DNA of 16,121 bases from an uncultured Victivallales bacterium (GCA_964598575.1 CAZRCN010000019.1:1-16121); one strand, 5' to 3'; positions 1,271-15,835 are shown, numbered from the stretch's first letter. Notes: generated by a model from the letters alone, not told the origin. Made by a program: numbers and translations.

Positions 1271-1858
1271 TCATAGGAATTGCGAACCGATGAAAACATA
1301 GGTGGACAGGGTGAGCAGAAAGGCGAGGAGGGCGAGGAGTCCATCGCGGGCGGTCAGGGACAGCCCGAAGATGGTGAGGACGAGTCCGGCGCTGCTGGCG
1401 GAAAAGAGAATGAACTCCATGAGTGGCAGACTCAGTGCGATGATGATGCAGATGGCGGCAATCACATCAGCGCCGATACCCCGCACAAGAAAGGAAAATC
1501 GGGGTTTCAGCATGCGGTCGATGACCCGGGCTGGTTTACGAAGCCATCGCAGCGACCGGATCAGTTTTTTTCGCCGCACTGTGCGGTCCAATAGCCAACG
1601 CGGCAGCCAAAGGGCCTGCCGCCGAAACAAGATTTGAAGACTGATCAGCAGCGTGAATACGCCCATTGTCGTTGGAACAGTGGGAATGCCACTGAGCGGG
1701 GAAAATAATATGAGTCCCGGCAATAACAGCAGGGTGCCGAACGAACGCGTGCCGACAGCTTCCAGGATGGCTTCTAACGTGACATGTCGCCGAATACCCG
1801 TGGTTTCTGTTGCTATCCGCTCCAGTACTTGCTGCATGTTTTTGGGTTCGTCATTCAT
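1271..1858 (-). CDS. ExoD-family membrane protein (exopolysaccharide synthesis ExoD, PF06055-like), 195 aa.
   Basis: Multi-span hydrophobic protein with the ExoD-like N-terminal motif RSFGTLLLLPGLILFSPLSGIP and LQILFRRQALWLPRWLL. It is convergent with the upstream hypothetical gene. Confidence 0.75.
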   Translation of the reverse strand: MNDEPKNMQQVLERIATETTGIRRHVTLEAILEAVGTRSFGTLLLLPGLILFSPLSGIPTVPTTMGVFTLLISLQILFRRQALWLPRWLLDRTVRRKKLIRSLRWLRKPARVIDRMLKPRFSFLVRGIGADVIAAICIIIALSLPLMEFILFSASSAGLVLTIFGLSLTARDGLLALLAFLLTLSTYVFIGSQFL

Positions 1859-2016
1859 GATTGGAAGCTACTATAGCTGTTAATCTGGCTGTGAACAATT
1901 ATCGATGTAGGGTCTAAGAAAGATCGAACCCTTAAGTCAGTCTCTCCCCTATGGTGTACAGGGGGAGGGTGTGTTTATGGTGATCCACGCGTTTGCGGGT
2001 AGCAGTGCGAAGCGGG

Positions 2017-2073
2017 CATCACGGTGATGTGTGATGCCAGAATCCATAAACATGCCGGCACATCACCGGTCAT
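2017..2073. promoter_or_regulatory. Candidate operator: perfect palindrome CATCAC-G-GTGATG (2017-2029). A further GTGATG follows at 2031-2036 and a CATCACCGGTCAT at 2061-2073, 30-85 bp upstream of the EncFtn start.
   Basis: The palindrome was read directly. Its position in the divergent exoD/encFtn promoter region suggests regulator binding. I cannot assign it to a known box such as Fur, PerR or IdeR. Confidence 0.3.
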
Positions 2074-2102
2074 ACAGTCCGATACAAGAAGGAGAGTGGC
2101 AT

Positions 2103-2462
2103 ATGCCAAGCGCCTATCATGAAGACAACCTGTCCGAAGACGTCAAGGATACACACCGGGCTCTCGTCAGCCTGCAGGAAGAACTGGAGGCGGTGGATTG
2201 GTACAACCAGCGCGCCGATGTGACGACGGATGCGGAGTTGAAAGAGGTCTTGATTCATAATCGCAATGAGGAGATCGAGCATGCGGCCATGCTGCAGGAG
2301 TGGCTCCGTCGCAAGGTGCCCGCCTTTGACGAACAACTGCAAACATACCTCTTCGCGACACTCCCCATTACCGAGGTGGAAGAGGCGGCCGAGGCGGCTG
2401 AAGCCGAAGAGGGTGCGCCCGAAGCCGGAGATGGCTCGCTCGGCATAGGAACCAGTACATAA
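2103..2462 (+). CDS. Encapsulated ferritin-like protein (EncFtn / Flp), the cargo of a family-1 encapsulin. It has a ferritin-like four-helix core with an EEIEH-type metal-binding motif, an Ala/Glu-rich linker, and a C-terminal targeting peptide GSLGIGTST.
   Basis: The protein reads ...LQEELEAVDWYNQRADVTTDAELKEVLIHNRNEEIEHAAMLQEWL...AEAEEGAPEAGDGSLGIGTST. The ATG at 2103 is preceded by AAGGAGAG at 2088-2095. The ORF-track start at 2031 lacks an RBS. The encapsulin gene starts 23 nt downstream. Confidence 0.85.
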   Translation: MPSAYHEDNLSEDVKDTHRALVSLQEELEAVDWYNQRADVTTDAELKEVLIHNRNEEIEHAAMLQEWLRRKVPAFDEQLQTYLFATLPITEVEEAAEAAEAEEGAPEAGDGSLGIGTST

Positions 2463-2485
2463 CAGAGAAAAGAGGAGATACCGTC

Positions 2486-3292
2486 ATGACAGATATGCTA
2501 AGAAGAAACCTTGCCCCCATCACAGCGGAGGCATGGAAGGAAATCGATGAAGAAGCCACCCGTACGTTGCGGACGCATCTTACGGCCCGGAATATCCTGG
2601 GTGTCAATGGTCCACATGGATGGTCACTGGGTGCAATCAATCTAGGCACACTGGATTTGGGTAAGCAAGAGCTAGTGCCTGATGTGGGGTGGGGGATGCG
2701 CAATGTCCTTCCGCTAACGGAAATACGGGTTCCCTTTCTTCTCGATACCTTCGAGTTGGATGATATAACCCGCGGCAGTAAAACACCGGATCTGGATGCG
2801 GTGGACGAAGCCGCGCAGAAGGCGGCGCTTTTTGAAGAAACGGCTATCTATAAGGGCTTTGCGCCAGCCGGTATCCAGGGGATATTGACGGCCAGCGCGC
2901 AAGAGGCTGTATCGCTGTCCGGAAAACCCGAGAATATGATCAAGGCGATCGAGCGAGGCGTGCATGCCCTGCAGCGCAGTGGCATTGCAGGACCGTATGA
3001 ACTGGTGCTCGGCGACGAGCCGTACCAGAAGCTGTATGCAGGAGAGGAAAGCTGCTATCCATTGTATCGCCAAGCAACCGAGATTCTGGGAGGAGGCATC
3101 CATTGGAGCCGGGCCTTGGAGGGCGGTGTGATTGTGAGTGCGCGTGGCGGGGACTTTGAGTTTAGTTGCGGGCAGGATCTCTCGATCGGGTACGCCATGG
3201 TGCAGGAGCAGCAGGTACATCTCTACCTGACCGAATCTTTCACCTTCCGGGTACTCGAACCGGAGGCGGCTGTACCGCTGACGGCGCAGTAG
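2486..3292 (+). CDS. Family-1 encapsulin shell protein (Linocin M18-like, HK97 fold), 268 aa.
   Basis: It is collinear with Thermotoga maritima encapsulin throughout, including the RGGDF, GQDLSIGY and TESFTF blocks at the matching C-terminal positions. The RBS AAGAGGAGA lies 6 nt before the ATG at 2486. Confidence 0.9.
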   Translation: MTDMLRRNLAPITAEAWKEIDEEATRTLRTHLTARNILGVNGPHGWSLGAINLGTLDLGKQELVPDVGWGMRNVLPLTEIRVPFLLDTFELDDITRGSKTPDLDAVDEAAQKAALFEETAIYKGFAPAGIQGILTASAQEAVSLSGKPENMIKAIERGVHALQRSGIAGPYELVLGDEPYQKLYAGEESCYPLYRQATEILGGGIHWSRALEGGVIVSARGGDFEFSCGQDLSIGYAMVQEQQVHLYLTESFTFRVLEPEAAVPLTAQ

Positions 3293-3369
3293 ATCGGAGG
3301 GCGGCTCACCGGGGTTCTGGAGTCGGTCCGTTCCCGGGCCGTAGCAGATGGCTGGCGGGGCAGCGCGTA

Positions 3370-3439
3370 GGATGCGGGACGGAGGGCGTCCTGGTACCAG
3401 ATTGGGATGCGGGACGGAGGGCGTCCGGGTGCAGATTCG
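3370..3439. repeat. Two tandem copies of a 35-bp unit, GGATGCGGGACGGAGGGCGTCC-N-GGT-N-CAGATT, at 3370-3403 and 3405-3439. Each contains a GGACG-GAGGG-CGTCC hairpin (5-bp stem, 5-nt loop). A third CGGAGGGCG motif lies at 3295-3303.
   Basis: Read directly in the 167-bp spacer between the encapsulin stop (3292) and the radical SAM start (3460). The unit length is not a multiple of 3, so it is not a peptide repeat. Confidence 0.5.
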
Positions 3440-3459
3440 AGGTTGGTGGGAGAGATGCG

Positions 3460-4464
3460 ATGAAAGAGGCGATGTTCTGGGAGAAGGAATCGGCGGATAC
3501 GGTTCGCTGCACGTTGTGCTATCAGCGCTGCCGGATCAAACCGGGGGCGCGGGGCATCTGCGGTGTACGTGAAAACCGCGCCGGCGAGCTGGTTACACTT
3601 GTGTATGGGCGTCCCATTTCCATCGCGGTAGATCCCATCGAAAAAAAGCCGTTGTACCATGTCCTACCCGGCAGCACCGCGCTTTCCCTTGGTACCGTGG
3701 GTTGCAATTTTCGGTGTCTGAACTGTCAGAATTGTTCTATTTCGCAGCTTCCGCCTGCTGGGGAGATAGGCGGGCATGAGGGGGTAACGCCTGAAACCAT
3801 TGTCGCTACCGCCAAGGCGAAGGGTTGCGAGAGTATTGCCTACACCTATACCGAGCCGACCATCTTCTTTGAATATGCCTACGATATTGCCAGGCTTGCC
3901 AAGCGCGAAGGCATCAGGAACCTGTTCGTTACAAATGGATATATCATGCCTGAAGCCCTTGAGAAGATGGCGCCCTATCTGGATGCTGCCAATATCGATC
4001 TCAAATTCTTCCGTGATGACCTGTACCGTGAGGTGGCTGGAGCCCGGCTGCAACCGATTCTTGATACGATCCGGCTCTATCACAAGCTGGGGATTTGGAT
4101 CGAAGTCACCACGTTGGTGATTCCCGGTTACAACGATGATGACGAACAGCTCGGCACCATGGCGTCATTCATATCTGACACGGATCCGAGTATACCGTGG
4201 CATCTATCCGCCTTTTTTCCGACCTACAAGCTCACCGATGCCGCCCCGACCCCGCTTGCAACACTGGAAAAGGCCCGAGCCATTGGCCACGCTGCCGGAC
4301 TTCAGCATGTCTACCTCGGAAATGTCCGGGAAGCTGCACATACTATCTGTCCCTCTTGTGGCACGGTGCTGGTAGAACGCCATGGCACGCATGTGCAGAT
4401 GCAGGGTCTGGCAGATAAGCGCTGTTCATCCTGCAAAACCCCAATCGGAGGCGTCTGGACATGA
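3460..4464 (+). CDS. Radical SAM enzyme, PflA-like / AmmeMemoRadiSam-system-type activase, 334 aa. It has an N-terminal Cys cluster (CTLCYQRC), the canonical SAM-cluster motif GCNFRCLNC (C-x3-C-x2-C), and a C-terminal CPSC...CSSC zinc-ribbon-like pair.
   Basis: Motifs were read from the translation, including EKKPLYHVLPGS and the C-x3-C-x2-C cluster. The start is the ATG at 3460 after GGTGGGAGAG. The upstream in-frame stretch 3166-3459 overlaps the encapsulin gene, crosses the tandem repeats and is Gly/Arg-rich, so I treat it as non-coding. Confidence 0.7.
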   Translation: MKEAMFWEKESADTVRCTLCYQRCRIKPGARGICGVRENRAGELVTLVYGRPISIAVDPIEKKPLYHVLPGSTALSLGTVGCNFRCLNCQNCSISQLPPAGEIGGHEGVTPETIVATAKAKGCESIAYTYTEPTIFFEYAYDIARLAKREGIRNLFVTNGYIMPEALEKMAPYLDAANIDLKFFRDDLYREVAGARLQPILDTIRLYHKLGIWIEVTTLVIPGYNDDDEQLGTMASFISDTDPSIPWHLSAFFPTYKLTDAAPTPLATLEKARAIGHAAGLQHVYLGNVREAAHTICPSCGTVLVERHGTHVQMQGLADKRCSSCKTPIGGVWT

Positions 4465-5105
4465 CCTTCAAGGATAGATCTGATGCAGGGCATCAAGTAG
4501 GATTGGCGTTGAAAGCCTATGGTGACAAGGGTCCGCTGGTTCTAGGCATACCACGGGGCGGGGTCGAGGTGGCCTATCAGGCAGCAAGGCTCTGCAACGC
4601 CGACTTTTCCATCCTGATTGTGAGGAAGCTGCCGTTTCCCGATAATCCCGAGGCTGGGTTTGGTGCGCTGGCAGAAGACGGCAGCCTGTATCTTATTCCC
4701 GATGCGGAACGTGCGATACCCCGCTCGGTTGTCGAGAACATTGTCCAGGCACAACGTACGGAAGTCAGGCGGCGCGTCGAGGTGCTGCGTGAGGGGCGGA
4801 AGCTTCCGTCGCTAGCTGGGCGCAACGTGGTGCTGGTCGATGACGGCATTGCAATGGGGTCGACGACGCAAGCGGCGGTCTTGTGTTGCCGCAATCTGCA
4901 TGCGGCCCATATAACGGTGGCAGCACCAGTAGCGTCCCCTCGAGCTGTGGATGCCCTGTATCCCGTTGCGGACCGGGTCATTGCGCTCCATGCCCCCGAC
5001 GCCTTCAGGGCCGTGGCGGCCTTTTACCAAAACTGGTATGACGTTCCCGATGACGAGGTTATTCGTATATTGAGAATGGCAGAGCAAGAAGCACTGCTGC
5101 AATAA
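4461..5105 (+). CDS. Phosphoribosyltransferase-family protein (COG1926-type predicted PRTase), 214 aa. Its PRPP-binding loop is VVLVDDGIAMGSTTQAA.
   Basis: The type-I PRTase signature (hydrophobic-DDG-x-A-x-GST) is present, and the overall layout matches the stand-alone predicted-PRTase family. The ATG at 4461 overlaps the radical SAM TGA at 4462-4464 (ATGA). Confidence 0.75.
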   Translation: MTFKDRSDAGHQVGLALKAYGDKGPLVLGIPRGGVEVAYQAARLCNADFSILIVRKLPFPDNPEAGFGALAEDGSLYLIPDAERAIPRSVVENIVQAQRTEVRRRVEVLREGRKLPSLAGRNVVLVDDGIAMGSTTQAAVLCCRNLHAAHITVAAPVASPRAVDALYPVADRVIALHAPDAFRAVAAFYQNWYDVPDDEVIRILRMAEQEALLQ

Positions 5106-5123
5106 TGAGAAAGGAAGTATAGC

Positions 5124-5690
5124 ATGCAAGTACCACTGGAAATCGCCTTTCGGGATGTATCCCGAACGCCCGAGATCGATCGGCTCATCGAGAAGAAAGT
5201 TGCGCGACTTGAGCAAGTCTGCAACAATCTCATCAGTTGCCGTATTGCGATAGAACAGCCGCAGAAGCATCAGCAGCAGGGCAACCCGTACCGCGTCCGC
5301 ATCGAGATGCATGTCCCACCCAAACATGAGCTCATTGCAAAAAGCAAGCCGGGAGACAATCCGATGCATGAGGGGCTGCATGCTGTGATTACGGACACAT
5401 TCGACACCGCCGAACGCAGACTGCGCAAGCAGATGGGCAAGCTCCAGGGCGAAACAAAGCGTCATCCCGATCAAGAGCCGATGGCCTTCATCGGGAAGAT
5501 CTTCAAGGACGAGGGCTACGGATTTATCTGGGGTATGGATGGCACGGAATATTACTTCCACCGCAATAGTGTGCTGCACGATGCCTTCGATCGGCTCGAA
5601 AAGGGCACGGGAGTCAATTTCGTTCCCGAGAGCGGCGACGAAGGACCCCAGGCTAGCAGCGTTGAAATGATCGACAAGCCATCCCTATAG
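5124..5690 (+). CDS. Fusion of an HPF/RaiA (YfiA-fold ribosome-associated inhibitor) domain with a cold-shock domain, 188 aa.
   Basis: The N-terminal roughly 105 aa match the HPF/RaiA fold (LIEKKVARLEQVCNNLISCRIAIE...YRVRIEMHVPPKHELIAKSK...AVITDTFDTAERRLRK). The C-terminal roughly 65 aa are a cold-shock domain with the FIGKIFKDEGYGFIWGMDGTEYYFHRNSV RNP-like motifs. The RBS AAAGGAAG precedes the ATG at 5124, which is 18 nt after the PRTase stop. Confidence 0.75.
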   Translation: MQVPLEIAFRDVSRTPEIDRLIEKKVARLEQVCNNLISCRIAIEQPQKHQQQGNPYRVRIEMHVPPKHELIAKSKPGDNPMHEGLHAVITDTFDTAERRLRKQMGKLQGETKRHPDQEPMAFIGKIFKDEGYGFIWGMDGTEYYFHRNSVLHDAFDRLEKGTGVNFVPESGDEGPQASSVEMIDKPSL

Positions 5691-5774
5691 TTGATCCAGG
5701 AAATGGGCGCAAGCGGGAGATACGATTACCGCTTGGATAGCAGTTGCCCGTCTGCCATCTGGATGGAAGCCGGC

Positions 5775-6464
5775 TTAGGCTCTTACGCCAAATACACATC
5801 CGACACCGTAGGTGAGCCCCATAGCCAGTGCACCCCAAAACGTCACCCTGATAGCACCGATCATAAGGGGTGCGCCCCCCGTTCGTGCAGCCGCTCCACC
5901 AAGAAACGCCAAAAACACGAGCGATAAGGTTGCAACGGCAGGGATCAGATAGTTGCCTGGCATAGCCCATGCGATAACAAGCGGCAGGGCCGCACCAACG
6001 GTAAAGGAGGCCGCCGACGAGCATGTTGCTAGCACCGGCTGAGCCCTGACAGTTCCCGATATGCCGATGTCATCCCGGGCGTGCGCATCCAGGGGGTCTT
6101 TGGCCATGAGCTGTTCTGCAACTTGTCTGGCCAGAACAGGTTCAACACCCCGATGTTGGTATATCGTTGCAAGCTCATCCTTTTCGGACTCGATGTCGTT
6201 CTCTAATGATTTCTTTTCGAGGTCTAGATCTGCTTTTTCGGTGTCCGATTTAGAACTGACGGACACATACTCGCCAGCCGCCATAGACATGGCCCCAGCA
6301 ACTAATCCCGCAAGACCCGCAAGAAGAATGTTCTCTTGTGCTGCACCTCCAGCCGCAACGCCAATAATAAGACTGGCCGTAGACACGATTCCGTCATTCG
6401 CGCCTAAGACGACTGCACGCAACCACCCCCCGCGTTTCGATCTGTGTCTTGCATGATGGCTCAT
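5775..6464 (-). CDS. VIT1/CCC1-family iron/manganese transporter (vacuolar iron transporter-like).
   Basis: The conserved motif WLRAVVLGANDGIVSTASLIIGVAA is present, with two hydrophobic blocks separated by a charged central loop. The ATG at 6464 is the first Met. The ORF track extends to a TTG at 6503, which would overlap the DUF2267 gene. No strong RBS is visible for either start. Confidence 0.75.
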   Translation of the reverse strand: MSHHARHRSKRGGWLRAVVLGANDGIVSTASLIIGVAAGGAAQENILLAGLAGLVAGAMSMAAGEYVSVSSKSDTEKADLDLEKKSLENDIESEKDELATIYQHRGVEPVLARQVAEQLMAKDPLDAHARDDIGISGTVRAQPVLATCSSAASFTVGAALPLVIAWAMPGNYLIPAVATLSLVFLAFLGGAAARTGGAPLMIGAIRVTFWGALAMGLTYGVGCVFGVRA

Positions 6465-6486
6465 GTGCCTGCACGGGGATATGGGG

Positions 6487-6852
6487 TTAGAAGAGGGAGG
6501 CAAAGTCGTTGGGTAGTTGAGACCAGATGTGCTGGAATTCGCCTGTGCTTACGGCTTCCGACAGGACCGAGAGCACGATCTTGATGTGCTGTTCGGCCGT
6601 GGGCGTATTGACACCTTCGCGCTCGGCTACCATCTGCACGAAGGTATCGCGATCGAAGGGCTGATTGGCCTCTGCCGGAATCAGGTAGTCCTTGACGCCA
6701 TCGGGTAACTGCGCCGCCAGATCGGAGGATTCGCCTCCATAGAGTCGTTTGCCAAGCACTTCCAGGGTTGCCCGGGTTGCTTTTTCGGCTGCAGGTTCAT
6801 CGGCCAGCTCGGCGCGGTTTCTTACTTGCGAGATGAATGTATTGCGATCCAT
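6487..6852 (-). CDS. DUF2267 domain protein, 121 aa.
   Basis: It matches the DUF2267 family along its whole length (FISQVRNRAELADEPAAEKATRATLEVLGKRL...DLAAQLP...REGVNTP...HIKIVLSVLSEAVSTGEF). A strong RBS GGAAGGAGAAC precedes the ATG on the minus strand. Confidence 0.85.
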   Translation of the reverse strand: MDRNTFISQVRNRAELADEPAAEKATRATLEVLGKRLYGGESSDLAAQLPDGVKDYLIPAEANQPFDRDTFVQMVAEREGVNTPTAEQHIKIVLSVLSEAVSTGEFQHIWSQLPNDFASLF

Positions 6853-7010: not shown

Positions 7011-7104
7011 AGTACGGATGCAGGATAGACTTGCGAGCAGTATGGCAAAAACCCCTGATAGGCGGGCAGAGACTGCGGGATTGTATCTTCACGAAGGAGG
7101 TGTT

Positions 7105-8421
7105 TTGAGAGTTGTTGGGCTATGTATGGTACTGTTGTTGGGTGTAGGGTCTGTGCAGTCACGGGACCTCACGCTCGAGCAGGCGCTTGCGGTAGCGGAA
7201 GCGCAGAGTACCACGCTGCAAAAGCTGGATGCAGGGCTATCTCTGGCAAAGGCCAGGCACCTGCGTTCTGCCCAGGCGTTCCTGCCCAAGGTGTCGATGG
7301 ATGCAACGTGGTTTCGAGCGGATGCAACGTTGCTGGAAGATGTGCCGTTTCCGTCCCTGCGCCCACAGCCACGCTTGGCGTATCGCGATCTCGGACCGCT
7401 GGAGGGTGCGATGGGCGGTGTTCAAATTCTGCAACCGCTTTTGTATGTCTCGGGGCTGCAGGCGCGCCGGCAGGCTGACCATATCGTTGCGGCGCAGCAA
7501 CAGTCGCACACCTGGGGCCGTCTGCAAATGCGTTTCGAGGTGGTCCGGCTCTATTATGCGGTTACGGTACAGGAGGAGCATGAACGTGCGGCCGAAGACG
7601 CGCTGGCCGCAGCGCAGCAAGCACATCAGATGGCAAAGGCCGCCTATCAAGAAGGGCTTGTTCCCAAGCTGGATGTGATGCGGGCTCTGGCGGAGTTGGA
7701 AGCGAGCCGGGCACGACGTACGAGTGCTGCAGCCGATGTGCAGGCAGCCCGCATTGCATTGGCGACCCTGCTTGGGCTTTCGCCGCAAGAGCGCCAGGTT
7801 CTTGTAGATGCTTTTCCGGAGCCAATCCCCCCACTTGAACAACCCCTGTCATCTATGGGGCGAAGCGATCTTGGGGCGCAGGAGGAGCGGCAAAAAGCGG
7901 CGGCGGCGGGGCTGGACAAGGCACAGGCGCGCTGGGTACCCAAGGTTGTGTTGCTGGGGCGGCAGCAATGGATAGATGGTGAAGATGCTCTGACGTCCGA
8001 TGCGGATAGCTGGCTGGTGGCGCTTCAGTTGCAGTGGTCCTGGTTTGATGGACTGGATCGCGAAGGCGAGATCCGGGAAGCGCGTGCAGAATATCGACTG
8101 GCACAGACTGAGCTAGAGGCTGCCCAGCGCCGTGTGCAGGAAGAGCAACTTCTGGCAGCTAGTACGTGGCGTTCGGCTTGGTCTGCCTGGCAGGCGGCCG
8201 TAGGCGCACGGGATGCGGCGGGCGAAGCCTTGCGTCTTGCCCAGCGGCAATATGAGGAGAATCTTGTTTCCATGACGGATTTGCTTGCTACCCAGGCCAC
8301 GTTCTATGCGCAGCAACGAGCCTATACCTGCAAGCGCTACAACGTGCTACTGGCCTCCATGAACTATTATCTGCGTTATGGTATGGATCCATTAACGGCT
8401 CTACCCGGAGAGACACCATGA
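7105..8421 (+). CDS. TolC-family outer-membrane efflux protein (OEP), the outer-membrane channel of an RND system.
   Basis: It has the OEP-family coiled-coil/beta repeat layout with an N-terminal signal peptide (RVVGLCMVLLLGVGSVQS) followed by LTLEQALAVAEAQS. I chose the TTG at 7105 with AAGGAGG at 7094-7100. The ORF-track ATG at 7018 would add 29 non-signal residues and has no RBS. The stop overlaps the next start (ATGA at 8418-8421). Confidence 0.8.
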   Translation: MRVVGLCMVLLLGVGSVQSRDLTLEQALAVAEAQSTTLQKLDAGLSLAKARHLRSAQAFLPKVSMDATWFRADATLLEDVPFPSLRPQPRLAYRDLGPLEGAMGGVQILQPLLYVSGLQARRQADHIVAAQQQSHTWGRLQMRFEVVRLYYAVTVQEEHERAAEDALAAAQQAHQMAKAAYQEGLVPKLDVMRALAELEASRARRTSAAADVQAARIALATLLGLSPQERQVLVDAFPEPIPPLEQPLSSMGRSDLGAQEERQKAAAAGLDKAQARWVPKVVLLGRQQWIDGEDALTSDADSWLVALQLQWSWFDGLDREGEIREARAEYRLAQTELEAAQRRVQEEQLLAASTWRSAWSAWQAAVGARDAAGEALRLAQRQYEENLVSMTDLLATQATFYAQQRAYTCKRYNVLLASMNYYLRYGMDPLTALPGETP

Positions 8422-9545
8422 AACCTAGGGATGTGAATGTTCGCTTGATTCTTATTGCCGCAGCTATGACAGCCTTTACCGCTGCCGGTTGTTCTGAGGC
8501 ACAGGATGAGCAGGCGTCAGCGGATGGGCATCCGGATGCAGTTGCTTCCGTGCAGGTGGCAAAGATTACACCGTGGCAGCAGGACGGAACCCGCCGTTTT
8601 CCGGGGGTGGTACACCCCATCCGGCGCGCCGTTCTGAGTACGCGGGCGAACGGCACGATCCACGCGATCAAAGTTGCAGCCGGGGACAATGTGGCAGCCG
8701 GGACGGTGCTGGCAGAAATGGAAGCACGCGATCTGGAGGCAGCCATTGCCGGGATCCGGGAACGGTTAAAGGCTGCAGAGGCTGCCGACGAACAAGCCGG
8801 GCGCGACGTACAGCGCCTGGAGGCTCTAGCCGCAGAGGACCTGATTGCCAGGAATCGTTTGGAAAAGGCCAGGGTCCGTAAACGCGAGACAGAGGCGCAG
8901 GTGGAAACGATTCGCGCGGAAGTAGATGTCCAGGAGCTGAATCGGGACTATGCACATGTTACGGCACCTTTTGACGGGATTGTGGGCGAGGTGATACGGG
9001 ATGAAGGATCATTTGCAGGCCCGGGGCAGCCCATTGTGATCCTGGACGACCGCTCGGCGTTGCAAATAGATGTGCCGGTGCCTGCAAATATTGCCAGCCG
9101 GGTGCATCCGCAAGCGGTCCTGCTTGCAAATGACGCCTCCTTGCCGGATCCCTTGCCGCTGCACGTTGTAGCGGTCGTGCCAGCTTTTCCCGGTAAGCGT
9201 GGTGGCCAGATCCTGCAGCTTTTGCTCGAGAATCCTCCTGAGGCGATACAGCCCGGACAGGTGGTAGAGGTAGCCCTGCAAGTGCCGACAGAGGATGAGC
9301 TGGTTGCCTTGCCGCAAGCCGCGCTGATTCGTCGAGGCCAGCTGACGGGTGTTATGGTTGTGGAAAAAAGAGATGACAAACAGGTCATGGTGCTGCGATG
9401 GATCCAGACTGCTGCGCCAAGTGTCAGGGCAGATGATGTGCTACCCGTTCGAAGAGGATTGCAACCGGGTGAACGGGTCGTGCTGCATCCTTCGCCCGAT
9501 GCGCGCGACGGCCAACAGGTACGGGTCGAGAAGGGGGCTCCCTGA
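8418..9545 (+). CDS. RND efflux periplasmic adaptor subunit (membrane fusion protein, HlyD/AcrA family), a lipoprotein.
   Basis: A lipobox ...FTAAGC follows a hydrophobic signal segment. The protein has coiled-coil-rich lipoyl and beta-barrel regions typical of membrane fusion proteins. Its stop overlaps the RND start (TGATG at 9542-9547). Confidence 0.85.
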   Translation: MKPRDVNVRLILIAAAMTAFTAAGCSEAQDEQASADGHPDAVASVQVAKITPWQQDGTRRFPGVVHPIRRAVLSTRANGTIHAIKVAAGDNVAAGTVLAEMEARDLEAAIAGIRERLKAAEAADEQAGRDVQRLEALAAEDLIARNRLEKARVRKRETEAQVETIRAEVDVQELNRDYAHVTAPFDGIVGEVIRDEGSFAGPGQPIVILDDRSALQIDVPVPANIASRVHPQAVLLANDASLPDPLPLHVVAVVPAFPGKRGGQILQLLLENPPEAIQPGQVVEVALQVPTEDELVALPQAALIRRGQLTGVMVVEKRDDKQVMVLRWIQTAAPSVRADDVLPVRRGLQPGERVVLHPSPDARDGQQVRVEKGAP

Positions 9546-12500
9546 TGGAAACCGAACTGGGCCTGGCCGGGCAGATTGCAAAGCGGGTTCTAAACGCCCC
9601 GCTGGTTCCCCTGTTCGTGGTTGCCTGTCTTGTTTTGGGCAGCTACAGTTTGATGATTACGCCCCGTGAGGACCGTCCGGATATCGACGTACCAACGGCC
9701 GTGGTTGTTATTCCGTGGCCGGGTGGTGGCGTGGAACGTGTGGATGATCAGTTGGCCCGACGTGTAGGGGGGTGGGTACGTGCCATTCCATCTGTCACGG
9801 ATATACGCAGCAGCAGTACCGACCATGCCGCCTTACTGATCGTGGAATTTGAGACAGGAACAGCCGAAACAACCGCGTACGCCGAATTGGATGAGCAGTT
9901 GCGAGGTCACGCCGCAGCGATGCCCGTGGGAGCGGGGTCTCCACATATCGAGACGTTTGGGGCGGAACGCCTGGTCATGTTTATGGCCACCTTGAGCAGC
10001 AAGACCCATAGTCCCCGTGAGCTGGATCAGATTGCCGGTGAGTTTTCCGCCCGCTTGGCATCGGTCCCGGGGGTGCGCACCATCACGCGTTATGGTGGGG
10101 AGCAGAAGGCGATTGAAATCCTGCCGCGACTGGAACCGATGGCTGGCTACGGTATTTCGCTGCCACAGATGGCCGAAGTCATTGCGGCGGCAGGGATGCA
10201 GCGCCCTTTGGGCCATTTGGAACAATCGCCGGTGCGGTCCGTCCAAGCGGGCATCGATAGCAGTAGTACAGCCAAATTGGCCCGTCTTCCCGTGGGAAAG
10301 AGTGCTGCGGGGCCCGTGTATTTGGAGGATGTTGCGGATATCCGCGATGGAGTCGTTCGCCGGAACCAGGCGGTTTTGCATGGGCGACGCGGGCAATCCG
10401 CCCTGTACCCAGCCGTTACGCTGGCCGTGACGACCCTTGCGGGTGAAAATGTAAGTGATGTGACGCGCAGGCTACAGGAGCAAATGGCCGTGCTGCGTGC
10501 CGAACTATTGCCATCGGATGTGGCGCTCACGGTCAGCTATGATGCGGGCCGTGAGGCGACCAAACGCGTCTTTAACGTACTGCGACAATTGCTGATGGGC
10601 ACATTGATCGTCGTGGGCATTATCCTGGTCGGGCTCGGTCTGCGTGCCGCCCTGATTATTGCCCTGATGATGCCAGTCTCCTTGGCCGTGGTTCCCTTTC
10701 TGTATTATCGCTTTGATTTTACGCTCAATCCCGTCTCCATAGCAGCGATGATATTGGCGATTGGTATTCTTTCCGATGATGCTGTGGTGATGCTCGAAAA
10801 CATGTATCGGCATTTTCGCAGGGCAGGGGAGAAGACCCGGGAACTGACGGTGAAAGCGGTAAACGAGGTTGGCAATCCGACGATTCTTGCCGATTTGCTG
10901 GTGGTGGCGACGTTGCTGCCGACGGCATATATTACCGGTGAAATGGGCCAGTATGTTCGTGCCCTCCCGGTCGGGGCATCGGCCGCCGTGCTCTTTTCCC
11001 TGCTGGTCGCTCTTACGATTACGCCGTACTTCGGTATTCGGTTGCTCCGGGTGCATAGCACTCGTCATCAGGGGCCTTCTGCGACTAAGCATAGGCAAGA
11101 ATCGAGAGAGAATCAGCAGCAGAACAAGATGGGCTATGACCGCATCTATCGTACGATTATGGCACCACTGATGCACCATGCTGTCTTGCGCTGGATTTTG
11201 TATATCTGCCTTATCTGCCTGCTTGTTTCAGCATTTGCGCTGGTAGGATTCCGCAGGGTGCAGATTGGCTTAACCCCTTTGCTGGATCGTCAGGTCTTTG
11301 TCGTGCATGTAGAGCTTCCACCGGGTGCCTCCCTGACAGAAACGCTTGCCGCAACTTCAGATGTCATGCATCAACTGCGTAAGCTGCCAGACATTCATTC
11401 CGTGACCCTATATGCAGGTACGGATGCGCCGCAGATCTACCCCGCCTCCCATATCAACATTCCGAGGGAAACCCCGCCGCATATTGCCCGCATACATGTG
11501 GAAATGGTGCCGAAATCGGAACGTCAGAAACGCAGTTACGAGGTAAGTCGCACCGTTGCGCACCAGTTGGGGGATTGGCTGACACCTTATGATGCGACAG
11601 GGTATATTGCCCGCATTCCCTCCGGGCCATCCAGCCACCGCGATATCACTGCTGAAATCTATGGACAGGATGCTGCTGCGCGTCAGGCGGTGGCCGACCG
11701 GGTCGCAGTGTGGTTGCGCACGCAGCCCGGTGTTGTTGTGGTGGAAGAGCGTCCTGATGCGCCGTTGGACAGGCTCAATGTGTGGGTGGACCCGCAGCGG
11801 GCTGCTACATTGGGCGTCATCCCCGCGAACGTAACGCAGACGCTCTCGCTGACGGTGCACGGCAGTATCCTGACCGATTGGGCCGGGACAATCTCCCGCG
11901 AACCGGTTCCGGTGGTCCTGCGGTTGGAGAAAACGCGCCGTGATCGTGTCGAAGCCCTACAGGAAATCTACGTGCAGGATAGAGCCGGCCATCCGGTCCC
12001 CCTGGAATATCTGGTTACCTTTGAATACAGGCAAGGGGCTCCGGTGCGATACCGCCGCAACTTGCTGCCGATTACGACGGTCTTTGCCGATCTGGACCGA
12101 TCAGTGGTGCAGCCGGTGACCATCCAAATGGCGGCTGATGCAGAGATGCAGGCAGATATGTCTGACGAGCCGCTTGCCGTGCGTTGGCTTGCCCCACCCG
12201 AGGTGTCCTCTCAAAAGGCAGAGCTGTACTGGTCCGGGGAATGGGAAATGACACGCGACGTCTACCGCGATCTTGGTGCAGCCGGTCTTGTGGTTATGCT
12301 GCTGATCTATTTGCTGTTGGCTGGGTGGTTCAAGTCCTACGCGCTGCCATTGCTGATTATGCTACCCATCCCACTGATCGGTATCGGGGTCATCCCTGCA
12401 CATTGGCTATGGGGGATACCTATTGCCGGAACCGGTGTGCTCGGTATGATTACCCTCGCTGGCATCGTGGCGCGCAATTCGATTCTTCTGGTGGATTTCA

Positions 12501-12766
12501 TCAAGCAGCGCGAGGGTGAAGGCATGGAGCTACGGGAAGCTGTGCTACAAGCTGGCGTGATTCGCACGCGCCCCATTCTGCTGACGGCTGCGACGGTCAT
12601 GTTCGGGAGCGGGGTCCTGATCTTTGAACCCTCGTTGAAACCGCTGGGCCTGACCCTGGCCAGCGGTGTATTGTTTTCCACGCTCGTGACGCTCGTACTG
12701 ATCCCCATTCTCTATTTTCATGTCCATCAGCACAGCAATGCCGGATACATCCGCCAGCTGATGTGA
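9545..12766 (+). CDS. RND-superfamily efflux permease (AcrB/CzcA-like), 1073 aa.
   Basis: It has the 12-TM RND architecture with two large periplasmic loops and is the third gene of the TolC-adaptor-RND operon. The N-terminus (METELGLAGQIAKRVL...) is atypical for either the HAE1 or HME subfamily. Confidence 0.9.
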   Translation: METELGLAGQIAKRVLNAPLVPLFVVACLVLGSYSLMITPREDRPDIDVPTAVVVIPWPGGGVERVDDQLARRVGGWVRAIPSVTDIRSSSTDHAALLIVEFETGTAETTAYAELDEQLRGHAAAMPVGAGSPHIETFGAERLVMFMATLSSKTHSPRELDQIAGEFSARLASVPGVRTITRYGGEQKAIEILPRLEPMAGYGISLPQMAEVIAAAGMQRPLGHLEQSPVRSVQAGIDSSSTAKLARLPVGKSAAGPVYLEDVADIRDGVVRRNQAVLHGRRGQSALYPAVTLAVTTLAGENVSDVTRRLQEQMAVLRAELLPSDVALTVSYDAGREATKRVFNVLRQLLMGTLIVVGIILVGLGLRAALIIALMMPVSLAVVPFLYYRFDFTLNPVSIAAMILAIGILSDDAVVMLENMYRHFRRAGEKTRELTVKAVNEVGNPTILADLLVVATLLPTAYITGEMGQYVRALPVGASAAVLFSLLVALTITPYFGIRLLRVHSTRHQGPSATKHRQESRENQQQNKMGYDRIYRTIMAPLMHHAVLRWILYICLICLLVSAFALVGFRRVQIGLTPLLDRQVFVVHVELPPGASLTETLAATSDVMHQLRKLPDIHSVTLYAGTDAPQIYPASHINIPRETPPHIARIHVEMVPKSERQKRSYEVSRTVAHQLGDWLTPYDATGYIARIPSGPSSHRDITAEIYGQDAAARQAVADRVAVWLRTQPGVVVVEERPDAPLDRLNVWVDPQRAATLGVIPANVTQTLSLTVHGSILTDWAGTISREPVPVVLRLEKTRRDRVEALQEIYVQDRAGHPVPLEYLVTFEYRQGAPVRYRRNLLPITTVFADLDRSVVQPVTIQMAADAEMQADMSDEPLAVRWLAPPEVSSQKAELYWSGEWEMTRDVYRDLGAAGLVVMLLIYLLLAGWFKSYALPLLIMLPIPLIGIGVIPAHWLWGIPIAGTGVLGMITLAGIVARNSILLVDFIKQREGEGMELREAVLQAGVIRTRPILLTAATVMFGSGVLIFEPSLKPLGLTLASGVLFSTLVTLVLIPILYFHVHQHSNAGYIRQLM

Positions 12767-12898
12767 GGGCTTAGATGAAAGTGGCCACCGTGTAAGGTTT
12801 TACGAAGACGAAAATACCTGATTCTACTGATAGAGCAAGCTCGGGTGCCCGTGTAGGTTGACAGGGTGAAAGCAGATACGAAAAGGAGATAAGAAGCC

Positions 12899-13699
12899 AT
12901 GATCAGAACCGTCACCGTTTATACAGGCGATAGCGATTGTGCACAGGCTGCACAGCAACACGCGATTGCATTGGCGAAACACGTTTCGGCCCGCTTGAAG
13001 ATTGTTGGTCTTGGCGACGCGAAACAGGGCTTTCGTGATGGAAGTAGCACGGAATCGGTTGCAGACCTTATGCAGCGTAAACGGGCGTCGCTAGCTGAGA
13101 CGGCGGAAAGAGCCGGAGTCCGGGTTGTCTCCGATGTACGGGGCAATGGGCTGAAGCGGGGCTTGCTGGAAGAGGCACGGGAAACGGATGTGCTTGTTCT
13201 GGGGCTGCCCACGGAGGCCGATATGGCATCCGACGATGCTGCCACACATCTTGTCCGGAAGGAACGACCTGTTCTCCGGAAGGCCCATTGCGCGCTGCTG
13301 CTTGTCAATCAGCCTCCCGTGCCCGTAAAGCGCATCCTGGCATGCTACGATGATGAGCCTGTGGGCCAGCGGATGCTGCAGATGGCTGGTAGCATCGCCG
13401 AGGCATATCAAGCACGTATCGGGGTCTTTGCCAATGAAAACGACTTGGCCAAGGCGCGGGAGCTTGCTGATGCAGCCAAAGCATATCTGGAAGGTTATGA
13501 TGTTCCTGCCATTGACACGATCGCCGTATCACGGCCGAAAGGTTCCAGGGTAGAGATTCTCCATGCAGCCGAGTCTTTCGAAGCGGATCTGATCACCATG
13601 GGCGAAGAGGGACATAACTGGCTGGAACGGATGTTTTGTAAAAACGTGGCCGAACGAACGGCAATGGCGACACCGGTTCCGCTTCTCATCGTCAGGTGA
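12899..13699 (+). CDS. Universal stress protein with tandem UspA domains, 266 aa.
   Basis: There are two Usp domains. The second ends in the typical ...ADLITMGEEGHNWLERMFCKNVAERTAMATPVPLLIVR. The RBS AAAGGAGA precedes the ATG at 12899, and a possible TTGACA -35 element lies at 12858-12863. Confidence 0.85.
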   Translation: MIRTVTVYTGDSDCAQAAQQHAIALAKHVSARLKIVGLGDAKQGFRDGSSTESVADLMQRKRASLAETAERAGVRVVSDVRGNGLKRGLLEEARETDVLVLGLPTEADMASDDAATHLVRKERPVLRKAHCALLLVNQPPVPVKRILACYDDEPVGQRMLQMAGSIAEAYQARIGVFANENDLAKARELADAAKAYLEGYDVPAIDTIAVSRPKGSRVEILHAAESFEADLITMGEEGHNWLERMFCKNVAERTAMATPVPLLIVR

Positions 13700-13800
13700 A
13701 GCGGAGGAGTTGTAGACTGTGTGGCGGGCGCAGTGGATGGTCTCGGCGCGGAGCGACGTGGGGCCTTCGAACAACAGGGCTGCCCCATAGGTTTGCATGC

Positions 13801-14776
13801 TCAACATAATGGTGGTTCAGGGCATGTCTCGCCATAGCGCAACTCCGTCAGATCCTGCGCTTGCGGCAATTGTCTGGCTGCTTCACGCAAGGCGCTTCGC
13901 AGTCCTTCTTCCAGCGTAGGATGATAGAAGGGCATGCTCATCAAGTTCCACGCCTAGTTTCTCTAGTCGCAGTCCGTCCAGATTAGGGCGCACACCCATG
14001 GCGACGAGTACCCGGTCAACCGTAACATGTGTCTCCCCGGCTTTTACTATGAGTGCCCTGTTATTCGCCTCAACCTCGGCTTTCTGTCCCACATGTATGG
14101 GGAATTCCTTGTTGATACGAGAAACCAGAGTGGCATTTACCTCAGGATCACTGAGTCCACCAAGGGTATCCAGTGCATCGAATCCGGTAACAGCTACGCC
14201 CAACCGGGAGAGGGCTTGACTCAACTCCAGTCCGATGGCTCCCAGCCCGATCACCGCCATTCGATGTGGCAGATCTGTCTGTTCGAACAGGGATTCGCTC
14301 GTCAAGACCCGCTTGCCGAAATCACGCCAGGCGGATGGAACGATCGGTTGCGCCCCAGTCGCAATGATAAACCGGTCCGCATGGATGATCTGATCATTCA
14401 CCTGTATGTGATGGGGGGATACAAATGTTGCATGCCCTTCAATCAGGTGATCCCGGGCTCGTTCACGTGTGGCCTCAATCATCCCATTCGTGAAAGCGTC
14501 GCGACTGGCACGAACCTGTTTCAATACGGCGGGAATATGGACAGCAGGTCTGGACGTCTCATCCGCGGTTTGATTGTACTCATGAGCCGCCCGGTCGATA
14601 TCATGCGCAATCCGGATGAAAGCCTTGGACGGCATACAGCCAGTCCGGGCACAGGTTGTTCCCAACGGCCCCTGATCTATCAGCAGGTAGTCATCGGTGA
14701 TGTTTTGCACCTGCCGCAGGGCCGCAATCCCGGCACTCCCGGCACCAATAATAACAATGTTCGTTTTTTTGTTCAT
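13801..14776 (-). pseudogene. Class-I pyridine nucleotide-disulfide oxidoreductase (lipoamide dehydrogenase / mercuric reductase-like) disrupted by an internal deletion and frameshift. The N-terminal FAD and NAD domains are intact (297 aa, 14776 down to 13883). The C-terminal HPTLEE-containing tail is in another frame (about 13935 down to 13801).
   Basis: The N-terminal redox-active motif GTTCARTGCMPSK and the GxGxxG NAD fold are present. The ORF stops right after GVELDEHA. Shifting one frame at about 13930-13940 gives ...PFYHPTLEEGLRSALREAARQLPQ..., the conserved C-terminal His-Pro-Thr...Glu dimer-interface segment. Roughly 140 aa of central and interface domain are missing between the two parts. 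Confidence 0.6.
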
Positions 14777-14782
14777 GATGAT

Positions 14783-15835
14783 CTACGCAATCGTGACATC
14801 GTCGCAGAGGTATACGTTCTGTACGGCATTGAGGATGGCTACGCCATCGCGTCTGGGTTTTTGAAAGGCCTTGCGCCCCGTAATCATGCCCATGCCGCCG
14901 GCGCGCTTATTGATGACGGCCGTGCGTACGACTTCCTCCAGATCATCCTTGCCGGATGAAGCGCCACCGGAGTTGATCAGTCCGGCGCGTCCCATATAGC
15001 AGTTTGCCACCTGATACCGGGTCCACTCGATGGGATGCTCCTGTGCAAGTTCCGAATATACCTTGTCATCGGTCTTGCCAAAGGACAGATCGCGGAAGCC
15101 CCCATTGCAGGAGGGTTGTTTCTGTTTGATGATATCGGCTTGCATCGTAACGCCGATGTGGTTGGCTTGGCCGGTAAGATCGGCCGAACGCTCGTAGTTC
15201 TGGTCATCGGTGCGAAAGGCGGCATTGCGCACATAGCACCATAGTACGGTGAAAAGACCGAGGCGATGCGCGTGCTCGAAAGCCTGTGCAATTTCCACAA
15301 TCTGCCGTCGGCTTTCCCGGGAGCCGAAATACACCGTGGCACCAACCCCGACCGCCCCCATGTTGAAAGCCCGTTCGACACTACAGAACAGGGTCTGATC
15401 GTAGATGTTCGGATAGGTCAGCAGCTCGTTGTGGTTCAGTTTTACAATAAAGGGTATCTTGTCTGCATACGCCCGGGCAACGGAACCCAGTACGCCGCCG
15501 GTGGATGCAACCGCATTGCAACCACCCTCGATCGCCAGTTCGACAATATTTGCCGGGTCAAAATAGTCTGGATTGGCGGCAAAGGCGGCTCCGGCGGCAT
15601 GTTCAAGACCTTGATCCACGGGCAGGATCGACAAATACCCCGTTCCTCCCAGGCGTCCGTGCCCGAAGACGGTGCGCAGGTTACGGATGACGGCTTCAGA
15701 GCGATCCGAGGCATGTACGACCCGGTCCACAAAATCGGACCCCGGCAGGTGTAGACGTTCCTGGCCGATGCCTTTGCATTTGTATGACAATAAACCGGTG
15801 TCCTGACCAAGCAGCTCTTCAATTCTCTGGATCAT
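14783..15835 (-). CDS. fbaB: Class I fructose-bisphosphate aldolase (DhnA/FbaB type), 350 aa.
   Basis: It shows near-collinear similarity to E. coli FbaB, for example the [48 protein letters not shown] and [13 protein letters not shown] blocks. The RBS AAAGGAGGATAAGAG precedes the ATG at 15835. Confidence 0.9.

Follow-up and report, generated by a model that had tools for sequence, protein, structure and literature searches.

Five co-oriented genes at an EncFtn encapsulin locus of an uncultured Victivallales bacterium suggest a lineage-restricted stress cluster

Results

The window analysed here, a 16,121-nt stretch of DNA from an uncultured Victivallales bacterium, carries five genes on its plus strand, the first two of which form an encapsulin pair. 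The first (2103-2462) encodes EncFtn, an encapsulated ferritin-like ferroxidase cargo (PF22277, 128 bits; TIGR04535, 140 bits against a cutoff of 125), and lies 23 nt upstream of the gene for the 268-residue family-1 encapsulin shell (2486-3292; NF041155, 280 bits against a cutoff of 100; PF04454, 260 bits). Beyond a 167-nt spacer (3293-3459) follow an AmmeMemoRadiSam-type radical SAM enzyme, hereafter rSAM (3460-4464; TIGR04337, AmmeMemoSam_rS, 352 bits against a cutoff of 220), a TT1426-type (COG1926-like) phosphoribosyltransferase, or PRTase (4461-5105; PF00156), and HPFcold, a fusion of an S30AE domain with a cold-shock domain (5124-5690; PF02482 and PF00313). As read directly from the sequence, the rSAM stop and the PRTase start share an ATGA at 4461-4464, and the PRTase-to-HPFcold gap is 18 nt; no credible opposite-strand gene lies between the five in the window. 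An earlier note on this DNA had given the same gene identities, positions and spacing, and the family profile matches and direct reading bear it out throughout. Homologues in L004 (MP... and MKEAMFWE) back the starts at 2103 and 3460, as do the gene calls made independently in L001 and L002, which come from the same organism as the window and are not counted as a separate lineage. GC3 is homogeneous over the five genes, at 0.61-0.67.

The alignment of EncFtn with its counterpart from Haliangium ochraceum (7OE2, E=5e-33) takes in the localisation sequence GSLGIGS. Because its C-terminal targeting peptide, GSLGIG, is present at residues 111-116 of 119 (nt 2433-2450), EncFtn is assigned as the packaged cargo of the shell. 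The shell itself matches the encapsulins of H. ochraceum (7ODW, E=1.4e-65) and T. maritima (3DKT, E=2e-56), and its length is the size of T=1-type shells. With the shell model, the upstream same-strand cargo gene and the cargo targeting peptide all in place, the two genes are, judging by their sequences, a standard family-1 pair of the EncFtn type, closest to the solved H. ochraceum system. A division of labour in which EncFtn would oxidise Fe2+ and the shell would store the ferric mineral is strongly supported by homology to the systems of Haliangium and Rhodospirillum. That EncFtn and shell normally form a two-gene unit, as the earlier note held, is supported by 20 metagenomic encapsulin loci: in 19 of them the EncFtn gene immediately precedes that of the shell, and the downstream trio is found in none.

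Neither terminus of rSAM, PRTase or HPFcold carries an (S/T)LGIG- or TVGSL-type targeting peptide, and the sole motif match in the trio is an internal LSLGTV at rSAM residue 75, beside the cluster motif. Since they lack such a peptide, the three proteins are taken to be neither cargo nor secondary cargo.

In rSAM, the CX3CX2C motif reads CNFRCLNC, and the protein also has N- and C-terminal cysteine clusters; its best PDB match is only PflA (E=8e-10). The TIGR04337 score above the curated cutoff, together with this motif, marks it out as a genuine AmmeMemoRadiSam member. Neither AMMECR1 nor Memo was found among the main ORFs scanned in the 16-kb window. The earlier note was correct as to this absence, but not in regarding it as unusual: over 80 genome loci, AMMECR1 lies within 10 kb of rSAM in one and Memo in none, and separation is thus the usual state in this rSAM subclade. 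Partners of the system are nearby in L117 and L110, and in L117, the closest relative (77% identity), a Memo gene (PF01875, 122 bits) runs convergently to the rSAM gene.

The PRTase matches TT1426 of Thermus thermophilus over residues 1-204 (1WD5, E=8.7e-38), and the PRPP-loop motif VLVDDGIAMGST is visible in its sequence. In Deinococcus deserti the PRTase gene overlaps an erythromycin-esterase gene, and in Rhodococcus opacus the PRTase is fused to an alpha/beta hydrolase, one of the actinobacterial PRTase-hydrolase fusions.

The fifth protein aligns over residues 1-181 with chain 9 of 9T0Z, the Coxiella burnetii protein CBU_0020 (E=2.5e-35, 38% identity). Its N-terminal PF02482 domain, C-terminal PF00313 domain and full-length similarity to CBU_0020 place it in the HPFcold family, which is widespread (1815 clusters). 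The Coxiella HPFcold has been solved on the ribosome (9T0Z/9TZE), where it occupies the decoding centre of the 30S subunit, and the anti-Shine-Dalgarno end of 16S rRNA is held by its cold-shock domain (bioRxiv 10.1101/2025.11.08.686982). By homology, it is strongly supported that the window protein would be a hibernation factor engaging the 30S subunit at these two sites. The S30AE and cold-shock fusion named in the earlier note is thus of a characterised kind, the match to 9T0Z showing it to be this recently described factor.

Downstream of the cluster and convergent with it, a VIT1-family (CCC1-like) iron/manganese transporter gene lies on the minus strand (5775-6503; PF01988, 215 bits), with its start placed at 6464 by an independent gene call in L001. 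On the same strand and upstream of it lies a gene for a DUF2267 protein (6487-6852; PF10025, 123 bits). The VIT1 gene is absent from the L004 block; the DUF2267 gene is kept beside that block, again convergent, at 84% identity. The stress context of the window comprises VIT1, DUF2267, Usp and a thioredoxin-reductase-like gene, and that of L004 desulfoferrodoxin, ferredoxin and BON-domain genes. In L119, desulfoferrodoxin, ferredoxin and rSAM occur together, without encapsulin, PRTase or HPF.

Within the spacer at 3293-3459, a consensus scan found no terminator-like or promoter-like site, and the folding of this DNA is not significant. The scanned spacer region of the L004 lineage likewise has no terminator-like site; the shell-to-rSAM gap there is 64 nt, and the sequence of the window spacer is not conserved in it. 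According to the earlier note, a terminator and an independent promoter in this interval, with no read-through, would have made the arrangement adventitious; at the level of consensus sites, the scan yielded neither. A 26-nt unit occurs twice in the spacer as direct repeats on the plus strand (3370-3395 and 3405-3430), with GGACG-N5-CGTCC in both. There are no other copies in the window and none in L004, which marks the unit as lineage-specific. Comparison of the window with L004 revealed a single conserved non-coding segment, which lies not in the spacer but upstream of EncFtn: 27 nt at 1914-1940 on the plus strand, common with L004 8584-8610 (20/27 identical), whose local alignment score of 24 is as high as the best of 200 shuffles, and no higher. 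This is weak evidence for a candidate promoter/operator region.

One sister lineage (L004-L006) has the identical five-gene order at 67-82% amino-acid identity (67-84% for the block together with the convergent DUF2267 gene) with different flanks, the ATGA overlap being kept and the PRTase-to-HPFcold gap being 19 nt. The order is therefore present in two lineages, this one and that of the window (with L001 and L002); a third was not found. Encapsulin does not occur within 10 kb of the rSAM homologues in any of the 80 genome loci, nor does the trio lie downstream of encapsulin in any of nine independent encapsulin lineages. Beyond the immediate clade, a conserved five-gene system is not supported, whether approached from rSAM or from encapsulin. 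Furthermore, six of the seven closest rSAM relatives (L117, L003, L107, L110, L108 and L119; 65-77% identity) are apart from encapsulin, PRTase and HPF, and the three closest HPFcold relatives (64-76% identity) stand alone, elsewhere than in the block. The immediate neighbours of rSAM over the 80 genomes fall into 174 Pfam families, none of them in more than 6 of 150 ORFs. In one unrelated metagenomic lineage (L101/L102), EncFtn-encapsulin is preceded on the same strand, at a distance of 3.5 kb, by a full Memo-AMMECR1-rSAM set. Six independent lineages of encapsulin have 3 kb or more of sequence upstream, and this co-location is found in one of them.

Discussion

The earlier note had raised a general association of encapsulin with rSAM and PRTase, and the gene-neighbourhood check does not bear this out: no rSAM locus among the 80 has encapsulin, and the closest relatives of each gene are unlinked. 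The sign of an adventitious arrangement that the note had named, an rSAM-PRTase pair lying away from encapsulin, is seen in all relatives but one. In line with the note, no association between encapsulins and radical SAM enzymes was found in the literature searched. Since the block is kept in a sister lineage, where just 64 nt separate shell and rSAM, it is not purely accidental; since its order is found in only that one sister lineage, a local cluster of stress genes seems a better description of the five genes than a new encapsulin system.

The explanation that we favour, at a probability of roughly 55%, is that of a lineage-restricted cluster around a standard EncFtn encapsulin, probably co-expressed and concerned with iron/oxidative stress and dormancy, with no physical link between encapsulin and rSAM. 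The host would be an anaerobe, and the cluster would serve its survival under stress. A promoter upstream of EncFtn would drive joint expression of the five genes, or at a minimum their expression in the same situations (oxygen or iron stress, or growth arrest), with iron sequestration and ribosome parking taking place simultaneously. The rSAM and the TT1426-type PRTase, themselves linked by translational coupling, would be co-produced with the encapsulin and HPFcold. Under such co-expression, the tie between encapsulin and trio would therefore be regulatory and positional, neither physical nor metabolic. It presumably dates back to a single event in the ancestor shared by the window and L004 lineages, and the encapsulin pair probably came to lie beside an rSAM gene already in a desulfoferrodoxin-ferredoxin oxidative-stress neighbourhood. 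Several points tell against this explanation. The 167-nt spacer could contain a promoter of a type outside the consensus scan, and retention of the block could reflect shared ancestry alone, since only two lineages carry it. Calling the rSAM and PRTase stress enzymes draws on their neighbours only, and the second, independent co-location of AmmeMemoRadiSam with EncFtn-encapsulin, in L101/L102, hints at more than position.

It is rather unlikely, although worth serious consideration, that the adjacency is adventitious, the EncFtn-encapsulin pair and the rSAM-PRTase-HPFcold trio being separate transcription units brought together in one clade with no shared regulation. The unrelated contexts in which the closest relatives of all three downstream genes sit, the diversity of rSAM neighbours, and the length and lack of conservation of the window spacer are all consistent with this. 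However, the block has outlasted rearrangement of both flanks at approximately 70-80% amino-acid identity, the gap in L004 is merely 64 nt, and the window spacer is without a terminator-like site.

More doubtful, yet compatible with the co-expressed stress cluster, is the idea that rSAM and PRTase constitute a separate two-enzyme pathway, for example one that ribosylates a small molecule or RNA and then modifies it by radical chemistry. Such a pathway would be independent of encapsulin and have HPFcold as a passenger. The ATGA overlap is kept in the window and L004, the order in L115/L116 is rSAM, CDP-alcohol phosphatidyltransferase, PRTase, and a PRTase gene lies immediately upstream of rSAM in L077 (Smithellaceae) and 4 kb from it in L007. 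Yet PRTase occurs within 10 kb in just 2 of the 80 genome loci and is adjacent in one of these, and L115, having been found by seeking co-location, is not an unbiased sample. The hydrolase partners of PRTase in D. deserti and R. opacus, and AMMECR1 and Memo as the recognised partners of rSAM, likewise argue against such a pathway.

We consider it improbable that EncFtn encapsulins and AmmeMemoRadiSam are functionally linked and came together twice independently, in the window block and in L101/L102, with the window representing one co-transcribed dormancy programme. If true, the window would hold a compact operon in which iron storage inside encapsulin is joined to an orphan radical SAM/PRTase pathway and to ribosome hibernation by HPFcold. 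Least probable of all is the coupling proposed in the earlier note, in which encapsulin iron would supply or protect the Fe-S clusters of rSAM and the five genes would form one biochemical system: the order kept in two lineages and the L101/L102 set (one of six lineages) speak for it, but encapsulin is within 10 kb at 0/80 rSAM loci, the trio is downstream in 0/9 independent encapsulin lineages, the link is missing in six of the seven closest rSAM relatives, the three proteins are without a targeting peptide, and no support was found in the literature searched.

The favoured stress cluster has a parallel, by analogy only, in the DosR regulon of M. tuberculosis, where a putative PRTase (Rv0571c) and a ribosome-stabilising factor (Rv0079/RafH) are co-induced by hypoxia with universal stress proteins (PMC5309233). 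A Usp gene is present in the window too, although Rv0079, unlike the hibernation factor of the window, is not an HPFcold. The latter has the same S30AE and cold-shock architecture as Coxiella CBU_0020, aligned over its full length; its gene follows the PRTase, whereas those of its closest relatives lie alone, beside uvrB or a sulfatase gene. The PRTase is similar over its full length to TT1426, the predicted PRTase of T. thermophilus, but it is paired with a radical SAM enzyme, and relatives of TT1426 elsewhere are paired with or fused to erythromycin-esterase or alpha/beta-hydrolase proteins. The rSAM scores as a member of the AmmeMemoRadiSam system (TIGR04337 rSAM, AMMECR1 and a Memo-like protein), of which L101 has the canonical triple; unlike in that set, its gene overlaps the PRTase gene, and neither AMMECR1 nor Memo was found in the 16-kb window. 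Finally, the EncFtn systems of H. ochraceum and Rhodospirillum rubrum (7OE2, 7ODW, 5DA5) likewise have the cargo gene directly upstream of the shell and share with the window EncFtn a C-terminal localisation sequence of the GSLGIG type. While these described systems consist of two genes, the window adds three more on the same strand, in an arrangement kept in one sister lineage only.

Gene content and layout

The locus comprises five co-directional genes, each belonging to a known family. The first encodes the encapsulated ferritin-like protein EncFtn (2103-2462, + strand), which matches PF22277 at 128 bits and TIGR04535 at 140 bits (cutoff 125), and the second a family-1 encapsulin shell (2486-3292, +; NF041155, 280 bits). 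These are followed by a trio consisting of a radical SAM enzyme (rSAM; 3460-4464, +; TIGR04337 (AmmeMemoSam_rS), 352 bits, cutoff 220), a phosphoribosyltransferase (PRTase; 4461-5105, +; PF00156), and a protein carrying both S30AE and cold-shock domains (5124-5690, +; PF02482 and PF00313). As confirmed by the sequence and the profile matches, the earlier note had placed all five genes exactly; the ATGA overlap of the rSAM and PRTase genes (4461-4464) and the 18-nt gap ahead of 5124 can likewise be read in the sequence, as can the 167-nt gap between the shell and rSAM genes (3293-3459). Furthermore, the genes of L001 and L002, two Logan contigs of the same organism, were called independently with identical starts. 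The rSAM frame is open from 3166, but reading this stretch as an N-terminal extension was rejected, both because homologues and independent gene calls begin with MKEAMFWE, and because the extra sequence is a Gly/Arg-rich spacer. GC3 is even over the five genes (0.61-0.67) and the same as that of their neighbours.

The EncFtn-shell pair is typical of its family. EncFtn aligns with that of Haliangium ochraceum (7OE2) at E=5e-33, and within this alignment lies the localisation sequence, which reads GSLGIGT in the window and GSLGIGS in H. ochraceum. Similarly, the shell aligns with H. ochraceum 7ODW at E=1.4e-65 and with T. maritima 3DKT at 2e-56. A motif search of the five window proteins located a terminal targeting peptide on EncFtn only, as it did for the homologues in L004, a contig of the sister lineage. 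No targeting peptide was found at the termini of the rSAM, the PRTase or the S30AE-cold-shock protein, and these three are therefore predicted not to be cargo. Encapsulins misfiled as capsids were rejected as a source of relatives, with none recovered when viral contigs were scanned with an encapsulin alignment.

The best match of the rSAM among solved structures is PflA (8e-10), and there is no close solved relative. The window enzyme is nevertheless a genuine AmmeMemoRadiSam member. The gene of its nearest relative (L117, 77% identity) converges with one for Memo (PF01875, 122 bits), and AMMECR1 lies 3 kb upstream of the rSAM in a further relative (L110). It had been claimed that the rSAM lacks its usual partners. 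While neither AMMECR1 nor Memo is indeed present among the window's identified genes, this is no departure from the usual, as AMMECR1 lies within 10 kb of the rSAM in only one of 80 genome loci and Memo in none. Separation from the partners is therefore normal for this rSAM subclade. A defence system was also considered and discarded, PADLOC having given only weak generic rSAM and cold-shock-domain matches.

The S30AE-cold-shock fusion is not an oddity. Its residues 1-181 align with chain 9 of 9T0Z/9TZE (E=2.5e-35, 38% identity), a full-length match to the protein named HPFcold, and a homology search returned 1815 clusters at E<=1e-10. This chain is Coxiella CBU_0020, which, as described in a 2025 preprint, occupies the 30S decoding centre, its cold-shock domain binding the anti-Shine-Dalgarno sequence and shielding it; the fusion is reported there over many phyla (bioRxiv 10.1101/2025.11.08.686982). 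The nearest relatives of the window protein are solitary (L118, 76%; L113, 68%; L111, 64%), and no PRTase remnant was found upstream of the stand-alone gene in L118.

Conservation of the arrangement

The five-gene order is kept in one clade, and the linkage is gone beyond it. In the sister lineage, represented by contigs from three JGI samples (L004-L006), EncFtn, shell, rSAM, PRTase, HPFcold and a convergent DUF2267 gene occur in the same order as in the window, with amino acid identities of 69, 82, 69, 67, 78 and 84%, respectively. The ATGA overlap is kept, the PRTase-to-HPFcold gap is 19 nt, and the shell-to-rSAM gap is 64 nt. Neither flank is shared: desulfoferrodoxin, ferredoxin and an LDH-family dehydrogenase face an ABC sugar transporter in L004, whereas in the window ExoD lies on one side, and VIT1 and RND efflux genes on the other. 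Sulfatase and glycoside-hydrolase neighbours were seen on related contigs and, together with best named matches in Verrucomicrobiota and Kiritimatiellia, hint at a PVC-group anaerobe.

The earlier note had suggested searching related genomes for encapsulin alongside this rSAM and PRTase; the three occur together in L004-L006 and at no other locus scanned. A search of the genome collection with the rSAM recovered 80 loci at 47-59% identity and none above 59%, which places the window lineage outside the collection's species representatives. Encapsulin is near the rSAM in none of these 80 loci, a PRTase lies within 10 kb in two (adjacent in only one), and HPFcold occurs in one, 5 kb off; the immediate rSAM neighbours span 174 different Pfam families, the most frequent accounting for at most 6 of 150 ORFs. 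The nearest metagenomic rSAM relatives also stand in unrelated contexts (L117, 77%; L003, 73%; L110, 70%; L107, 69%; L108, 66%; L119, 65%). A metagenome scan with the shell yielded 20 loci from about 13 lineages, with a best identity of 58% and without recovering the L004 lineage. EncFtn is directly upstream of the shell in 19 of the 20, and trio genes are downstream in none of the nine independent lineages with 2 kb or more of sequence on that side. A comparison of the three homologue lists for genes sharing a contig matched those of the window, L004 and L115 and no others. The arrangement is undescribed but narrow, being confined to two related lineages.

The spacer and transcription

Short same-strand gaps predict operons, and by this rule the 64-nt shell-to-rSAM gap in L004 favours co-transcription, while the 167 nt of the window are ambiguous. 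A terminator and independent promoter in 3293-3459 had been named as grounds for regarding the arrangement as adventitious; a consensus scan of 1800-6100 detected neither in the spacer, its totals being at shuffle level. Plain adjacency, with the encapsulin pair and the trio transcribed separately, would accommodate the window gap more readily than that of L004, and we regard it as possible but somewhat unlikely.

Spacer folding was no better than shuffled in either the window or L004 (z-scores not significant), and Rfam, at E<=1 over the whole window, returned only a chance IRES match far from the locus. Sigma-54-like and Fur-box-like sites in the spacer and upstream region were rejected as by-eye matches of too poor quality. 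The spacer shows no conservation between the window and L004, with an alignment score of 13, under the shuffle mean of 18. It does contain two direct copies, at 3370-3395 and 3405-3430, of a 26-nt unit, GGATGCGGGACGGAGGGCGTCC(T/G)GGT, which are 25/26 identical, 35 nt apart, and each bear a GGACG-N5-CGTCC palindrome. The window holds only these two copies and the 64-nt spacer of L004 none, and they account for much of the extra spacer length; the unit may represent a small insertion or an operator specific to this lineage. Outside their genes, the two loci resemble each other only further upstream, where 1914-1940 matches L004 8584-8610 at 20/27 positions, with a score equal to the maximum of 200 shuffles, approximately 165-190 nt 5' of the EncFtn start and at a similar distance in L004.

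Stress neighbourhood and probable origin

DUF2267 and VIT1-family iron/manganese transporter genes (5775-6852, - strand) are closely paired, being 22 nt apart according to the L001 gene call, and are convergent with HPFcold; DUF2267 adjoins the block in L004 too, where VIT1 is absent. ExoD is encoded elsewhere in the window, also on the - strand. Genes that fit a general stress neighbourhood occupy 7018-15835: an OEP-MFP-RND efflux operon in which starts overlap, and then a Usp with tandem domains, a thioredoxin-reductase-like flavoprotein and an aldolase of the DeoC/LacD family. A 225-aa ORF (494-1171, +), called as a gene in L001 and with a coding-type GC3 of 0.61, has no Pfam match, and its enclosing ORF (230-1171) has none in Pfam, NCBIfam or PADLOC.

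In the contig L119 (6202-8920), genes for desulfoferrodoxin and a small ferredoxin are found a short way 5' of the rSAM, in a locus free of encapsulin, PRTase and HPFcold. The same pair, up to 83% identical, is found in L004 (5291-11011) some 3 kb 5' of EncFtn, upstream of EncFtn-encapsulin-rSAM. This suggests that the rSAM stood in an oxidative-stress neighbourhood first, and that the encapsulin pair came later into this older setting. Both this pair and the PRTase-HPFcold pair may have joined the rSAM in a forebear common to the lineages of the window and of L004.

Interpretation

The best explanation, to which we assign a probability of roughly 55%, is an iron/oxidative-stress and dormancy cluster, lineage-restricted and probably co-expressed, with no physical link to the shell. 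In such a cluster the encapsulated ferroxidase would sequester iron and HPFcold would park ribosomes, with the rSAM and PRTase as two translationally coupled enzymes alongside. The interpretation offered in the earlier note is partly upheld, in that the arrangement is kept in the L004 lineage; a general encapsulin-rSAM link is not.

A self-contained rSAM-PRTase pathway, which would be compatible with such a cluster, is doubtful, though it has some support. The two genes are close together in other arrangements lacking encapsulin and HPFcold: the PRTase, of the TT1426 type, is immediately 5' of the rSAM in a Smithellaceae MAG (L077, 9289-11005), and in L115 (8124-10732; also L116) the order is rSAM, CDP-alcohol phosphatidyltransferase and TT1426-type PRTase. 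However, L115 came from a search for co-location, a biased sample, and just 2 of the 80 unbiased loci have a PRTase within 10 kb. Moreover, a PRTase relative overlaps an erythromycin-esterase-family gene on Deinococcus deserti plasmid 2 (L121, 6989-8978), and another is fused within a gene annotated as an alpha/beta hydrolase on a Rhodococcus opacus plasmid (hit H4), which suggests that this PRTase family is more usually partnered by a hydrolase.

That encapsulin supplies iron to the rSAM, as first proposed, is highly improbable, the co-location in its favour being suggestive but not significant: in L101 (1313-8149) and L102, a complete Memo/LigB-AMMECR1-rSAM set lies 3.5 kb 5' of EncFtn-encapsulin on the same strand, with aminotransferase, TMEM164-family and methyltransferase genes between and ribosomal protein S4 beyond. 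The shell there is only 41% identical to that of the window, and the co-location is an independent one. Such a set is near encapsulin in one of six independent lineages having at least 3 kb of upstream sequence, against a chance rate reasoned rather than computed at about 1% per locus.

Comparison with known systems

The passages on family-1 operons in a large encapsulin census describe a shell with one upstream cargo, and accessory genes in some operon types, and leave radical SAM unmentioned; the term 'phosphoribosyl' is absent from the paper (PMC8346489). A literature search found no paper connecting encapsulins with radical SAM enzymes. It seems improbable that the arrangement represents a true variant in the form of an encapsulin operon whose accessory genes are conserved. 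Were the five genes one operon, this EncFtn encapsulin would be the first to have accessory genes of this type that are conserved and are not cargo, and would provide a physiological handle (iron/oxygen stress, growth arrest) on three little-understood families, namely the AmmeMemoRadiSam rSAM, TT1426 PRTases and the recently described HPFcold. At present, it is a textbook encapsulin pair within a stress island of an uncultured anaerobe, with an apparent operon extension in two related lineages.

Over its full length, the PRTase is related to the structural-genomics protein TT1426 of Thermus (1WD5; E=8.7e-38). In M. tuberculosis, the DosR regulon likewise includes Rv0571c, a putative PRTase, and the ribosome-associated Rv0079/RafH (PMC5309233); the likeness to the window is solely one of functional analogy.
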